A stretch of DNA of 64,000 nucleotides from Thermoanaerobaculia bacterium (GCA_963664405.1 OY761158.1:480001-544000), one strand, 5' to 3'. Counted from the stretch's first letter, positions 57,570 to 61,801 are shown. Notes: generated by a model not told the origin, from the letters alone. Translations and numbers: made by a program.

Positions 57570-57906
57570 GCGCGTGAGCGCGAGCCCGGCTGCCGGTCTC
57601 ACAGGCCCGCGCCATCTACAAGCTGGGTTAACGCCTGCTATTTGAGATCGTAAGGCTCCTTGAGAGTGATCAGGGTAGTTGATGGGATTCGCCTCTGTTC
57701 TAGTCACGGTAGTCGAGGGAAGAGCGTACTGGTCCCTCGGATAGCGTGATCAAAGCGGGCAAAAGAGCCGGCATCATCCGCGGCCACCGGGCGCGCCGTT
57801 GTTGTGGGGGGGGGAGTGAGGTGCCCTCCGGGGGTTGACGTCCCCTCGGAGGGCGTGTCTTCTTTCGTTGAATTTAAAAACGAAAGGACGAAAGGAGACA
57901 GCCCTC

Positions 57907-58473
57907 TTGTACCAGACCCTGCTTCAGGATGCCAGTTTCTACGATCTACTGCTGCGACTCGACGAGGATCTAGCGGAGAAGACTCGCGCCCTAGGCTGCG
58001 AATGCGGTGGGCGTTTGCACCAGGCTCACTATCCACGTAAGCCTCGCGGAGGGCCCGAGGAGCTGCGCAGAAGGACCTCGTTGCGGCTGAGCTATTGCTG
58101 CTCGGTGGAGGGGTGCCGTCGTCGTCAGACGCCTGCGTCCTTTCGTTTTCTGGGCCGGAAGGTGTACTTCAGCGTGTTGGTACTTCTGGTCCCAGTGCTG
58201 CGGGAAGGGGCCAAGGGAGAGCGGCTGCATCGTCTACAGGAATTGTTTCAGGTGAGCGCACGTACGGTGCGCCGATGGCAGAGATGGTGGCGAGAGGACT
58301 TCGGTCTCAGCCCGGTCATGACTCGCTTTCAAGGCTTTCATGCCGAGCCGATCCAGCGGCAAGACTTGCCGGGCTCTCTGCTCCTAGTCTTTCGTCAATT
58401 GTCGCCGGCAGGCGAGAGGGTGCTGGCGGTGATTCGCGCCCTATTGGTCGGGCCCTCTGTGCTCGCTGTGTGA
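57907..58473 (+). CDS. Transposon accessory protein with Zn-ribbon and HTH
   Basis: RBS AGGAG plus TTG; CECGG..CCSVEGCRRR; SARTVRRW. Confidence 0.75.
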   Translation: MYQTLLQDASFYDLLLRLDEDLAEKTRALGCECGGRLHQAHYPRKPRGGPEELRRRTSLRLSYCCSVEGCRRRQTPASFRFLGRKVYFSVLVLLVPVLREGAKGERLHRLQELFQVSARTVRRWQRWWREDFGLSPVMTRFQGFHAEPIQRQDLPGSLLLVFRQLSPAGERVLAVIRALLVGPSVLAV

Positions 58474-58579
58474 GGGTCGCCGGAAACCCGCAGAAGATGC
58501 GTCTCGACTCGCCGAGAAGCGGGCCTTAAGGTCTCTGTTCTCGCCGCCGATGGAAGGAATCGGCGCCCAGGAGAGGGAG

Positions 58580-60004
58580 ATGAGCCATCGAGCCTCGACG
58601 CAACAACGCTGGGCGCAGTTTCGCTTCAGTGTGGTGGGTGAGCTGTTGGCTGCGCCTCCCGCACCGGGACATCTGCAGGTGGAATTGTCTCGACTCTCCC
58701 AGAAGGCCTGGCGCCATCCGATCACGGAGAAGGCGGTGTACTTTGCCCGCTCGACGATTGAGCGTTGGTACTACACGGCCCTGGCCGGTCGCGATCCGAT
58801 CGGGGCGCTACAACGCCGATCGAGAAGCGACAGCGGCCAAGCGCGCGCCATCCCAACCCGGATCGCCGAGCTGATCCACACGCAATACAAGGCCCACCCG
58901 ACGTGGAGCTACCAGCTCCATTGGGACAATCTGGACGTGGTGCTAAAAGAGCGACCGGAGCCAGGGAAGGTGCCTTCCTACTCCACCCTGCGCCGCTTCA
59001 TGATCGCGCACGGTTGGCCCAAACAACGACGCACGAAGGGAAAGGATCGCAGCACTGCCTCCGGTGCCCCTGCGCGCGAGAAGCGCAGCTACGAAGCCGA
59101 GTACGTCAACGGGCTCTGGCACCTCGACTTCCACCACGGCTCGCGCAAGATCCCGAGCTCCGCAGGGACCTGGGAAGTACCGATGCTGCTGGCGATTCTC
59201 GACGATCACTCCCGGCTCACCTGCCATCTGCAGTGGTATCTGCACGAGACCGCCGAGTGTCTGATCCACGCTCTGATCCAAGCCTTCATCAAACGCGGAC
59301 TGTGCCGCTCACTGCTCACCGATAACGGCAGCGCCATGATCGCCGACGAGACCACCGAGGGGCTCCTACGCCTCTCCGTCGTCCATCGCACCACATTGCC
59401 CCGGAGCCCCTATCAAAACGGGAAACAAGAAAACTTCTTCTCTCGAGTCGAATCCCGCCTCCTCGCCATGCTCGAAGGACACGCGGATCTCAATCTGGCA
59501 TTGCTCAATGAGGCGACGCTGGCTTGGGTGGAGATGGAGTATCACCGCAGCGTCCATTCCGAGACCGGCCAGACGCCGCTCGACCGCTTTCTCGAGGGTC
59601 CCTCCGTCTCTCGGATCTGCCCCAGCCTGGACGAGCTGCGCTTCGCCTTCACCGCCGCTCGAAAGCGCACCCAGCGCCAAAGCGACGGCACCATCAGTCT
59701 TGACGGCACCCGTTTCGAGATCCCCTCTCGTTTCCATCATCTCAACCGGATCTCGGTGCGATACCAGAGCTGGGAGAAAAGCTCCGTCTTCATGGTCGAC
59801 GAAAGCTCCGACGTCCCACTCGAGCGCCTCTACCCCATCGACAAGGCAAGAAACGCTTCCGGCATCCGCCGCCCGATCCAACCCCAGAGCACCGACGAGC
59901 CGACAGGCCCGGAGCCTGGCATCGCACCCCTACTCCGCAAACACATGGCGGAGTACGCCGCCACCGGGCTCCCGCCCGCCTACCTCAAAAAGGAGACACC
60001 GTGA
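58580..60004 (+). CDS. DDE integrase/transposase (rve, Mu/IS481-like)
   Basis: HTH (STIERWYY), WHLDFH, TDNGS, NGKQENFF, HSETGQTP; Mu-like C-terminal DGTISLDG.RFE. Confidence 0.92.
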   Translation: MSHRASTQQRWAQFRFSVVGELLAAPPAPGHLQVELSRLSQKAWRHPITEKAVYFARSTIERWYYTALAGRDPIGALQRRSRSDSGQARAIPTRIAELIHTQYKAHPTWSYQLHWDNLDVVLKERPEPGKVPSYSTLRRFMIAHGWPKQRRTKGKDRSTASGAPAREKRSYEAEYVNGLWHLDFHHGSRKIPSSAGTWEVPMLLAILDDHSRLTCHLQWYLHETAECLIHALIQAFIKRGLCRSLLTDNGSAMIADETTEGLLRLSVVHRTTLPRSPYQNGKQENFFSRVESRLLAMLEGHADLNLALLNEATLAWVEMEYHRSVHSETGQTPLDRFLEGPSVSRICPSLDELRFAFTAARKRTQRQSDGTISLDGTRFEIPSRFHHLNRISVRYQSWEKSSVFMVDESSDVPLERLYPIDKARNASGIRRPIQPQSTDEPTGPEPGIAPLLRKHMAEYAATGLPPAYLKKETP

Positions 60005-60846
60005 ACAACCAGAAACTACTGGCACTCTTCGGACTCAAATGGAACCCCTTTACCCCCAACATCCCCGTCGAAGCGCTGTGGCGACACCCGCATCTCGACC
60101 ACTTCTGCTGGCGCCTGGAGACCCTCGTCCACGACGGTGGCTTCGCATTGATCTCCGGTGATCCCGGCACCGGCAAGTCGGTCGCTCTACGCACCCTCGC
60201 TCACCACCTTCAACACCTGCCCGACCTGCGCACCGGAGTCCTCACGCGGCCACAGAGCAGTCTCGCCGACTTTTACCGTGAGCTCGGACAGCTCTTCGGG
60301 GTCCCGCTCAATCCACACAACCGATGGGCCGGATTCAAAGCCCTCCGACAGACCTGGCTCTCCCATGTCGATGCCACCCATCAAAGACCCGTACTCTTGA
60401 TCGACGAAGCACAGGAGCTCGCCGCCAACGTGCTGGCCGAACTGCGCATCCTCGCCTCTGCGGACTTCGACTCACGCTCCATCCTCACCGTCGTCCTGTG
60501 CGGCGACTCCCGACTCACACAGCTCTTCCGACGAGACGATTTCCTACCCGTCGCCAGCCGCATCCGCGTACGCCTCCTCCTCCTCGACTACCTGCCCCCA
60601 GAGACGTTGGCCGAATGGCTCCAGCACTCCCTGACACAAGCCGGAAACCCCAGTCTCCTCGACCACGAGGTCATCACCACTCTCGCCGAGCACGCCGCCA
60701 GAAACCTCAGAGTACTCGCACACATGGCCAACGAGCTCCTCGCCATGGCCGCCAAAGAAGAGCTACCCAACATCGATCAGAAGCTCTACCTCGAGGTCTT
60801 CTCGCCACCTACCTCCCAGCGCTCTCCCAGGAAAGCCCGTGCCTGA
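60001..60846 (+). CDS. ExeA-like AAA+ ATPase (transposition helper)
   Basis: Walker A GDPGTGKS, Walker B LLIDEAQ; GTGA overlap with the transposase. Confidence 0.92.
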   Translation: MNNQKLLALFGLKWNPFTPNIPVEALWRHPHLDHFCWRLETLVHDGGFALISGDPGTGKSVALRTLAHHLQHLPDLRTGVLTRPQSSLADFYRELGQLFGVPLNPHNRWAGFKALRQTWLSHVDATHQRPVLLIDEAQELAANVLAELRILASADFDSRSILTVVLCGDSRLTQLFRRDDFLPVASRIRVRLLLLDYLPPETLAEWLQHSLTQAGNPSLLDHEVITTLAEHAARNLRVLAHMANELLAMAAKEELPNIDQKLYLEVFSPPTSQRSPRKARA

Positions 60847-61186
60847 CTCCCCATCCGCCCAGCAACAACGACGGCACCTCCAGAGCGTCCTCGAGCTCTA
60901 TCGACGACATCCCCAAACCACCGGACGAGTCAGAAACGCCGATCGCCGCCTCGCCGTACATCTCTATCGAAACGGCGTTACCCTCGACACCATCAACGCT
61001 GCCTTACTACTCGTCGCCGCCAGGAGATGCAACGAGGCACACACCACAACCCCCATCCAGAGTCTCCACTACTTCCTCCCCGTCATCCGAGAGATTCGCG
61101 ATAGACCCCTCGATAACGGCTACCTCCGGTACCTTGAAACTCTCATCCGCGACAGCAGCCAAGACCCAGACCATCATTTACTGTGA
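60839..61186 (+). CDS. Small hypothetical transposon protein
   Basis: 115-aa ORF overlapping the ATPase stop; PIQSLHYFLPVIRE motif; stop lies in the right-end repeat. Confidence 0.7.
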   Translation: MPDSPSAQQQRRHLQSVLELYRRHPQTTGRVRNADRRLAVHLYRNGVTLDTINAALLLVAARRCNEAHTTTPIQSLHYFLPVIREIRDRPLDNGYLRYLETLIRDSSQDPDHHLL

Positions 61187-61216
61187 TCAGCCCGCCATCG
61201 ATTACCGTGATCACTC

Positions 61217-61801
61217 TCACTCCTCGGCGGCGAGGAGCTCCGTGACCCGAATCACCCACTTCTTCTGTGGGCGACTCTTGGTTCCGTGGACGGTCTCTCC
61301 GTCGTAACGAGCTTGCATCGTGAAGAGATCTCGCATCGTCCGCTCATAGATCTTCGCGACCTTCGTATGCAGCTGATTTGCAAGCGCTGGTCCCCCTTCG
61401 CTCCCGCTGACCTCCGTGGCGTCGAGCTCTTTGATCAGAAGGCGAGCGTGGTACTCGCTAATGTCGAAGTGCAACTGTTCATGGGCGAGTGTCCGATCGT
61501 TTCGTCCGCCAGGCTGCGCCCCCGATTCGAGCTTGTTCATCAGGGCATAGACAACCGCGTTCCGGGGCCGAGCAACAAAGCCATCGCCCACCTGCTCAGT
61601 CTGGATCTTCAGCGGATCGAGCACCACTATCGAAGCGATCCACGCCACCCCCTGACCTCGGACTACGGGCCCCCTGAAATCGCTCCAACTCAGGGTCTTA
61701 TAGGTGCACTCGGCCTCATGGTCGATGCGCGTGGCCGCACCGCTCGACGCACTCACCCCAAGGGCGAGAGCAAGAGCGAGCAAAGTCGAGCACAGTCGCA
61801 T
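61217..61801 (-). CDS. DUF922-like exported Zn-peptidase, last 5 codons displaced by the transposon
   Basis: LSWSDFRG, LAHEQLHFDISE; stop TGA supplied by the transposon end. Confidence 0.75.
   Translation of the reverse strand: MRLCSTLLALALALGVSASSGAATRIDHEAECTYKTLSWSDFRGPVVRGQGVAWIASIVVLDPLKIQTEQVGDGFVARPRNAVVYALMNKLESGAQPGGRNDRTLAHEQLHFDISEYHARLLIKELDATEVSGSEGGPALANQLHTKVAKIYERTMRDLFTMQARYDGETVHGTKSRPQKKWVIRVTELLAAEE

Follow-up and report, generated by a model that had tools for sequence, protein, structure and literature searches.

The 64,000-nucleotide stretch of Thermoanaerobaculia bacterium DNA analysed here (GCA_963664405.1 OY761158.1:480001-544000, hereafter the window; the genome is one contig of 6.78 Mb) contains a 3559-bp transposon with TG..CA tips at positions 57661-61219; all coordinates are window positions unless another sequence is named. 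Four open reading frames (ORFs) lie on its plus strand, namely ORF1, a DDE transposase, an AAA+ ATPase, and ORF4, in which a Pfam scan found HTH_23 (HTH, helix-turn-helix), rve, AAA_22, and no domain, respectively. The explanation favoured here, with a probability of approx. 70%, is that the element belongs to the Tn6049 group as an intact, autonomous, and recently active copy, and that this group represents a widespread kind of small ATPase-dependent transposon.

The transposon is bounded by 25-nt terminal inverted repeats (left, plus strand, 57661-57685; right, minus strand, 61195-61219) that are 88% complementary (22/25, with 3 mismatches). The terminal site of 19-20 bp is present three times at the left end and twice at the right end. 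On the left, the terminal site L1 is followed by a direct subterminal repeat, L2 (plus strand, 57701-57719), of which positions 57704-57719 are 88% complementary to the right terminal site, and by an inverted third copy, L3 (minus strand, 57733-57752; 82% for 57704-57720 against the inverted 57733-57749). On the right, the terminal site R1 is accompanied by the subterminal repeat R2 (minus strand, 61171-61189), which is 84% identical to 61195-61213, the two being 24 nt apart. A target-site duplication, CTCCT, flanks the element as a direct repeat at 57656-57660 and 61220-61224. A preliminary description of this DNA had reported these ends, the additional repeats at 57701 and 61171, the CTCCT duplication, and the gene order, and all of them are present where it had placed them; L3 is an additional site that it had not mentioned.

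ORF1 (57907-58473, plus strand, 188 amino acids (aa)) contains an N-terminal Cys/His cluster and an HTH (HTH_23, E 2.6e-5). It could start at 57835 or 57907, the TTG at 57907 being the most likely start because GGAG precedes it and homologues begin there. Likewise, the transposase gene (58580-60004, plus strand) could start at 58550 or 58580, which would yield 484 or 474 aa, and the ATG at 58580 is most likely because homologues begin near it. The stop of this gene and the start of the ATPase gene (60001-60846, plus strand; AAA_22, E 1.9e-22; Walker A motif GDPGTGKS) overlap at 60001-60004. The ATPase gene, in turn, overlaps ORF4 (60839-61186, plus strand, 115 aa) by 8 nt (60839-60846), and the 3' part of ORF4 extends into the repeats of the right end.

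A leader of 101 nt surrounding the ORF1 start is predicted to form a pair of strong hairpins (-48.9 kcal/mol, z -5.73). Hairpin 1 (57821-57856, plus strand, 14 pairs) displays the hexamer TTGACG in its loop and is followed by a U-rich run, and it thus looks like a terminator. Hairpin 2 (57856-57899, plus strand) pairs an upstream stretch with the ORF1 ribosome-binding site. The two hairpins are found again, with compensatory changes, in 31 relatives, in which 11 of the 13 pairs change on both sides; for the helix of hairpin 2, this is the case for 7/7 pairs, with 82.9% of cells paired. Across the leader, 83.3% of cells are paired, compared with 70.5 +/- 1.3 in shuffles (0/500 reach the observed value), and the covariation score is 0.564, compared with 0.334 in shuffled alignments (0/500) and at most 0.291 when the pairing partners are slid.

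Genomic copies, recent activity and insertion sites

The genome contains five full copies of the transposon, so that the feature goes well beyond chance. The other four are 99.2-99.8% identical to the window copy, and all four frames are open in each. The flanks differ from copy to copy, and each copy carries its own duplication, which is 5 bp long in four cases (CTCCT, CTGAG, AGGAC, and TCCGG) and 6 bp long in one (CCACCG). One solo right end and one short fragment of the transposon are found elsewhere in the genome. In assemblies of public runs (four runs from two studies), transposon contigs start at 57661 and stop at 61219 or 61220 in all four runs, and a single contig spans exactly 57661-61219 in two of them. 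These contigs are covered approx. 5-9 times as deeply as the flanks, and they branch to the flanks of other copies and to at least one flank absent from the source genome. The transposon is intact and recently active; the earlier claim of a complete mobile four-gene element with repeated end sites and 5-bp duplications is borne out by the five copies and their exact boundaries.

Several further observations concern individual insertions. In three public runs, an additional flank that is absent from the source genome follows position 61224, hinting that the population harbours insertions beyond these. A contig of one public run connects the left end of an IS21-family element (described below) to the transposon at 58705, and the same nested insertion occurs in a related genome (L023, L139). 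In the copy at G000:C1:264981-268535 of the source genome, 7 of the 23 substitutions crowd into 44 nt of ORF4 (window 60957-61000) while the frame stays open, as if this segment had been patched from a relative. Finally, the window copy has inserted into the last codons of a minus-strand ORF (61217-61801), whose present stop is the terminal TCA of the element; judged by eye, the uninterrupted version would gain five residues.

The genome also harbours a 477-bp non-autonomous element, a miniature inverted-repeat transposable element (MITE), at G000:C1:410937-411413 and 14 other places, outside the window. It shares the three-plus-two layout of end sites with the transposon, and the ends of the two elements are 86% similar over 51 nt. 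Eight MITE copies are plain and seven carry an IS256-like insertion (the 1849-bp form), and most are 100% identical. At its different sites, the compound form is flanked by duplications of its own, so it appears to move as a unit. At G000:C1:3800330-3802657, a plain and a compound MITE lie head to tail, their adjoining ends separated by 1 base, and no duplication is shared by the outer flanks; this pair could be a tandem-dimer type junction or an insertion beside an end. A genome search revealed no second transposase of this family elsewhere in the source genome, which makes the window transposon the likeliest driver of the MITE, and activity in trans is plausible.

Collection of insertion sites had been suggested as a way to reveal target bias, and the 18 sites available (5 of the transposon and 13 of the MITE) exhibit no consensus. 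In the case of chromosomal position, 11 of the 21 transposon and MITE insertions lie within approx. 0.8 Mb of the terminus that GC skew predicts, and three insertions lie within 10 kb of each other near 6.49 Mb; this clustering is suggestive only, as the sites are few and confounded by selection. The orientation of insertions relative to replication (12/20) is unbiased.

The conserved proteins: transposase, ATPase and ORF1

The transposase combines an HTH_32 region with an rve core (E 2.6e-9). Its catalytic residues are D183, D248, and E284, with 35 residues between the last two (DD35E), and the three are invariant in 34 family sequences. Among NCBIfam models, IS481 is the best match (NF033577, 123.4 bits, E 1.2e-35); however, the family cut-off of 224 is not reached, and the model (284 positions) aligns with residues 63-347 of 484, leaving approx. 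130 C-terminal residues beyond it. The IS3 and IS21 models score below IS481, and the IS21 transposase model (NF033546) reaches 43.6 bits against a cut-off of 160. The phage transposase family phrog_310 matches residues 59-418 (E 2.4e-36). When the 34-member profile was compared with solved structures, it matched retroviral integrase cores only, and the similarity to Tn402 TniA (hhalign probability 16%) is confined to the catalytic core.

The ATPase is related to a different set of proteins. It matches phrog_296, annotated as 'DNA transposition protein' (E 1.5e-16), and the best solved relatives of its profile are MuB (E 2.8e-6, positions 45-256) and ShTnsC of a CRISPR-associated transposon (E 1.3e-4); the hhalign probability with TniB is 55%. 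The model PF01695 (IstB_IS21) is not among its 15 Pfam matches. Taken together, the transposase and ATPase matches indicate an IS481/IS3-like core enzyme joined to a target ATPase of the Mu/Tn7 type. The preliminary description had proposed an ATPase of the Mu/Tn7 kind and a misfit to the standard IS21 layout, and both proposals agree with these comparisons.

In the ORF1 family, C31, C33, H38, C64, C65, C70, and an RKPRG motif are invariant, and the HTH follows them. Across 60 family members, Pfam detects HTH_23 in 39, HTH_28 in 36, and HTH_Tnp_4 in 33. It appears that ORF1 is a DNA-binding subunit, probably with a role in regulation or assembly. Several other identities were considered and rejected. 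The comparison with Tn402 TniQ yields an hhalign probability of 0.14%, and none of the four proteins has a Pfam TniQ match. DUF6431, which a protein atlas suggested from distant clusters, is matched by 0/60 members at E <=1. There is no homology to the Cys-rich ORF located upstream of istA in the IS21-family element. Neither ORF1 nor ORF4, nor their tested relatives, are matched by any NCBIfam model, and Foldseek searches of both models against the PDB, which had been recommended earlier, gave no match at E <=0.001. PADLOC defence models match neither of these proteins nor the transposase, and a single weak P-loop match was obtained for the ATPase. The earlier statement that both accessory proteins lack a described function holds for the literature found, including the accessible part of PMC3281130, in which neither is described.

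ORF4 and the variable fourth gene

The predicted structure of ORF4 is of high quality (predicted local distance difference test (pLDDT) 92.1, predicted template modelling score 0.82) and consists of five helices. Comparison with the sequences of solved structures gave no match under E 0.29, and 0/17 sampled family proteins reach a Pfam cut-off. Nonetheless, the family is large: a profile search of 1.84 billion representatives, clustered at 50% identity, retrieved 1364 proteins at E <=0.001, of which 603 reach E <=1e-10, and most are 100-150 aa long.

The source genome contains approx. 25 further ORF4-family matches, which belong to a 3390-bp IS21-family element (G000:C1:593337-596726, equivalent to L134:301-3690, outside the window) present in 21 full copies, 18 of which have 5-bp duplications. 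Its IstA contains rve and Mu-transpos_C_2 (E 1.6e-23), and its IstB contains IstB_IS21 (E 1.8e-62). The ORF4 paralogue of this element (118 aa, 41% identical) overlaps the istB stop by 4 nt and ends 9 nt before the right tip. The element thus has four ORFs rather than two, the remaining one being a Cys-rich ORF of 131 aa, without a family match, ahead of istA. Within the Acidobacteriota, the ORF4 family occurs in 30 of 301 genomes, and 12 of the 17 strong loci lie directly after an IstB-like gene, two are in the transposon described here, and three are unclear (both counts include one genome flagged as unpublished, G049, locus L119). Among five genomes of other phyla that carry relatives of the transposon, one has the family. 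Found after two different transposition ATPases and after nothing else, an ORF4-type protein looks more like a partner than like cargo. A separate observation is that a chromosomal protein of approx. 230 aa in sister genera (L124:1078-1770, minus strand; L122:1426-2151, plus strand) has a weakly ORF4-like N-terminus (E 1e-10 to 1e-5); it belongs to no Pfam or NCBIfam family, and its neighbours resemble, by eye, biotin-ligase and pantothenate-kinase genes.

The gene following the ATPase gene varies among relatives of the transposon. In 46 loci with a full ATPase gene and sufficient downstream DNA, this fourth slot is occupied by an AAA_25 ATPase of approx. 317 aa in 22 cases, by an ORF4-family gene in five (four detected by blastp and L040 by tblastn and the family profile), and by an acidic protein of approx. 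70 aa in three, to which an element of Paraburkholderia can be added; the fourth ORF of Tn6049 resembles this acidic protein by eye only. When all 83 loci scanned (L021-L103) were searched with the ORF4-family profile, seven were positive. The conservation of ORF4 does not extend across the group, although ORF4 is a real protein of a large family. The RecA/RepA-like AAA_25 ATPase has a C-terminal helical region (L036:5077-6030, L094:3927-4880, and 20 other loci) and lies inside the mobile unit in multi-copy relatives; it is unusual for an element of this small size to have two ATPases. It has no homology to ORF4.

Relation to Tn6049 and a possible transposition mechanism

The four-gene architecture is not new, having already been catalogued as Tn6049. 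Tn6049, whose original description is reportedly that of Van Houdt in 2009, is likewise a multicopy element of approx. 3.5 kb, in which genes for a Cys-rich/HTH protein of approx. 181 aa, a DDE transposase of approx. 479 aa, an ATPase of approx. 277 aa, and a small ORF follow one another on one strand. A tblastn search of plasmids with the window transposase returned 148 records, the best being Paraburkholderia plasmids (52% identity), while identity to the proteins of Cupriavidus metallidurans CH34 pMOL28 and pMOL30 and of Pseudomonas aeruginosa pHS87a is 47.9% over 97%. The annotated four-gene order is alike in Tn6049 of C. metallidurans CH34 and in the element on the Paraburkholderia plasmid. 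Their ORF1 proteins are 40% identical to the window ORF1 and share the invariant Cys/His residues, and the ATPases of the window element and Tn6049 (281 and 277 aa) share conserved motifs, by eye only. There are also differences. The fourth ORF of Tn6049 is not homologous to ORF4 (hhalign 0.08%), and the Tn6049 hosts belong to the Betaproteobacteria and Gammaproteobacteria, whereas the window element resides in an Acidobacteriota genome. For Tn6049 on pHS87a, the available part of PMC4739549 gives a 12-bp imperfect inverted repeat starting TGTGC and 4-bp repeats, compared with 25 bp, TGAGAG, and 5-6 bp in the window element. According to the accessible portions of the respective papers, Tn6049 (3.5 kb) is present in CH34 in 12 copies, all with a 'gspA' ATPase gene and often in genomic islands (PMC2864759), related transposons occur in Acidithiobacillus (PMC3414803), and Tn6049's module for transposition defied assignment to a category (PMC6210171). 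The window element thus adds to this group, which is catalogued but uncategorised, an active and distantly related new member whose fourth gene differs. The preliminary description had considered that the element might match a described family with known accessory roles; a described element type does exist, but without known accessory roles.

The group is widespread. The ORF1 family comprises 742 clusters at E <=0.001 (among 1393 candidates scored) and occurs in at least 585 places in species-representative genomes. As judged from record titles, it extends to Acidobacteriota, Planctomycetota, Alpha-, Beta-, and Gammaproteobacteria, Myxococcota, and Chloroflexia, as well as Verrucomicrobiota, Binatia, Spirochaetia, Methylomirabilota, Dormiibacterota, and Solirubrobacteraceae. 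A check of the neighbourhood of 80 of these places found the transposase gene directly downstream of ORF1 in 72 and the ATPase gene also in 58; most loci without the full trio end at contig edges or are truncated. In the reverse direction, the transposase was found in 6 of 301 Acidobacteriota genomes (five loci outside the source genome), and ORF1 lies upstream in both intact transposase loci with upstream DNA (2/2). Sequence comparison shows that ORF1, a DD35E rve transposase, and a MuB/TnsC-type ATPase form a core trio conserved across many phyla, to which a variable fourth gene is added. In multi-copy relatives from Terriglobia, Planctomycetota, Binatia, and Alphaproteobacteria, the units are approx. 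4.2-5.0 kb long. Their ends were taken from multi-copy genomes, and an exact 11-mer seed search for terminal repeats mostly failed; the right-end pattern TGAG..GATCACGGTA..TGATGG, with a second copy approx. 25 bp inward, is shared by the Terriglobia, Planctomycetota, and Binatia units and a Thermoanaerobaculia relative. Alphaproteobacterial relatives (L042, L046, L047, and similar loci; units of approx. 5.0 kb) appear to have a divergent gene upstream of ORF1, the start of which is SEC-C-like by eye.

Other explanations for the element as a whole need to be considered. It could be an IS481-family insertion sequence with extra genes, moved by the transposase alone through a copy-out-paste-in pathway. 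Indeed, NCBI annotates the Tn6049 transposase as 'IS481 family transposase', and the best NCBIfam match and the DD35E spacing point in the same direction. Nonetheless, the score remains well under the family cut-off, the C-terminal part of the protein extends past the model, and the ATPase and ORF1 are conserved together with the transposase across phyla. The multiple subterminal end sites also resemble those carried by the ends of Mu, Tn7, and Tn552, and no circle junction is present in the public-run assemblies, although contigs could hardly show one. An IS481-type element with extra genes appears unlikely. In terms of a dedicated AAA+ ATPase alongside a DDE transposase, several end sites, and 5-bp duplications, the transposon is similar to Mu (MuA/MuB), Tn7-like elements (TnsB/TnsC), and Tn5053 (TniA/TniB), and its TG..CA tips and TnsC/TniB-related ATPase would even allow it to be regarded as a reduced Tn7- or Tn5053-family element. 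However, no TniQ was found, there is no TnsA-like gene among the four and no resolvase gene, a Zn/HTH gene is added upstream, and the transposase has a core with its closer sequence matches among IS481, IS3, and retroviral integrases, the likeness to TniA being limited to the catalytic core. Moreover, in the accessible part of PMC6210171, Tn6048 is assigned to the Tn5053 family while the Tn6049 module is left uncategorised. Such a membership is highly improbable. With IS21 (IstA/IstB), the transposon shares its small size and the order of transposase gene and ATPase gene, and the IS21-family element of the same genome likewise has an ORF4-family gene after its ATPase gene; in contrast, the window ATPase is not of the IstB_IS21 type, and the window transposase gives no match to Mu-transpos_C_2, unlike the IstA of that IS21-family element.

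The accessory genes could also be interpreted differently. In principle, ORF1 might be a target selector, a role that the preliminary description had suggested for ORF1 or ORF4; it would work in the manner of TniQ/TnsD, recognising a particular feature of DNA or protein and bringing the ATPase to it. Small TniQ proteins pair a zinc-binding region with an HTH, as ORF1 does, and within the group ORF1 is conserved more than any other accessory gene; the cluster of insertions around the predicted terminus could be read in the same way. However, that enrichment comes from few sites and is confounded by selection, neither a sequence consensus nor an orientation bias is apparent, no relationship to TniQ could be detected by hhalign or Pfam, and the gene is located upstream of the transposase gene instead of after the ATPase gene. 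This role for ORF1 is unsupported by the present data and quite improbable. As regards the fourth slot, its genes, including ORF4, may be passengers that take no part in transposition and have host-directed or addiction functions. The fact that at least three unrelated families (the ORF4 family, the AAA_25 ATPase, and the acidic protein) occupy the slot, and that most relatives lack the ORF4 family, is consistent with this possibility. Conversely, the ATPase stop is overlapped by ORF4 in this transposon and by the ORF4 paralogue in an unrelated IS21-family element, the strong Acidobacteriota loci of the family mostly follow IstB-like genes or lie in this transposon, and ORF4 is open in all five copies. 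Thus, a passenger role deserves to be kept in mind but is not the probable one, and ORF4 might be either an exchangeable partner in the ATPase step or cargo.

Several points weigh against the view that this is an autonomous, ATPase-dependent member of the Tn6049 group. Judged by sequence, the core of the transposase lies closer to IS481, IS3, and retroviral integrases than to MuA, TnsB, or TniA, and Pfam Mu-transpos_C (PF09299) matches only 3 of the 34 family members, weakly (best E 0.001). Many relatives of the IS481/IS3 type work without an ATPase, so that dependence on the ATPase is deduced from its conservation. The promoter was not located, a sigma-70 scan returning 0 sites. The structure model of ORF1 is poor (pLDDT 62, with the zinc region <55 and blocks at approx. 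110-180 reaching 71-84), and the structures nearest to its HTH part, namely Shigella TnpE (Z 5.8), the end-binding subdomain of MuA in the Mu transpososome (Z 5.0; isolated 2ezl, Z 4.7), and TnsB (Z 4.1), all have Z <6, within the noise range of the search tool. In a wide structural search with ORF4, the best matches were AAA+ lid domains (Z 7.3), ahead of DnaD-like domains (Z 5.9, 5.5) and of TnsC (Z 4.8); none of these reaches the level advised for helical bundles, and in the DnaD case the likeness may reflect a common helical arrangement. Four of the five MITE end sites read TGAGCAC, whereas the transposon has TGATCAC, so the true driver of the MITE could be a lost relative. Finally, the literature found, as far as its text was accessible, treats Tn6049 at catalogue level only; no functional study of a Tn6049-type transposon, nor an experiment with any member, was found in it.

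If the element is indeed an autonomous transposon of the Tn6049 group, its movement can be envisaged as follows. The N-terminal HTH region of the transposase would bind the repeated end sites (three on the left and two on the right) and pair the ends. The ATP-bound ATPase would coat or mark target DNA and activate strand transfer, as MuB, TnsC, and IstB do, leading to staggered joining 5 bp apart without sequence preference. The functions given here for ORF1 and ORF4 are inferences. ORF1 would be a DNA-binding third subunit, most likely acting in regulation or assembly on the DNA of the element itself, either at the end repeats or at the palindrome around the -35-like hexamer, and less likely as a TniQ-like selector of targets. 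In this respect, it might be compared with IS1 InsA or IS3 OrfA, since it is small, is encoded upstream of the transposase, and has a transposase-type HTH whose nearest structure is TnpE; IS1 InsA also has a zinc-binding motif. However, no sequence homology to these proteins has been shown, and ORF1 is not fused to the transposase by frameshifting. The leader might shield the transposon from outside transcription, as in other insertion sequences: hairpin 1 would terminate read-through, and hairpin 2 would hide the ORF1 ribosome-binding site, so that transcripts entering from outside are stopped or left untranslatable. ORF4 is presumably coupled translationally to the ATPase through the gene overlap, and at least two other kinds of gene can take its place in the fourth slot; it would most likely modulate the ATPase step or link the transposition intermediate to host replication or repair.

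A broader and more speculative possibility is that the ORF4 family is an unrecognised portable part of ATPase-dependent DDE transposition, placed after both IstB and MuB/TnsC-like ATPases and acting on the ATPase step. ORF4 would then be, for example, a detached lid-like or DnaD-like adaptor that tunes the assembly of the ATPase on target DNA or passes the strand-transfer product to replication restart. With the conserved Zn/HTH protein ORF1 also taken into account, the Tn6049 group would then be a transposon family in its own right, with three to four components.

ATPase-guided transposons, such as Mu, Tn7, CRISPR-associated elements, and IS21, serve as models of target choice and are the basis of programmable insertion tools. 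Within this context, the Tn6049 group is a further system of this kind, compact, distributed over many phyla, and essentially unstudied, with a third protein (ORF1) that looks obligatory and a fourth that is exchangeable. The IS21 structural papers found describe, in their accessible parts, IstA and IstB and no third protein. Even if ORF4 is only cargo, the element is still a clean, well-delimited, and active example of a catalogued but uncategorised transposon. If, on the other hand, it is true that the ORF4 family serves both IS21- and Tn6049-type elements, it would represent a new class of regulator for a well-studied transposon family.

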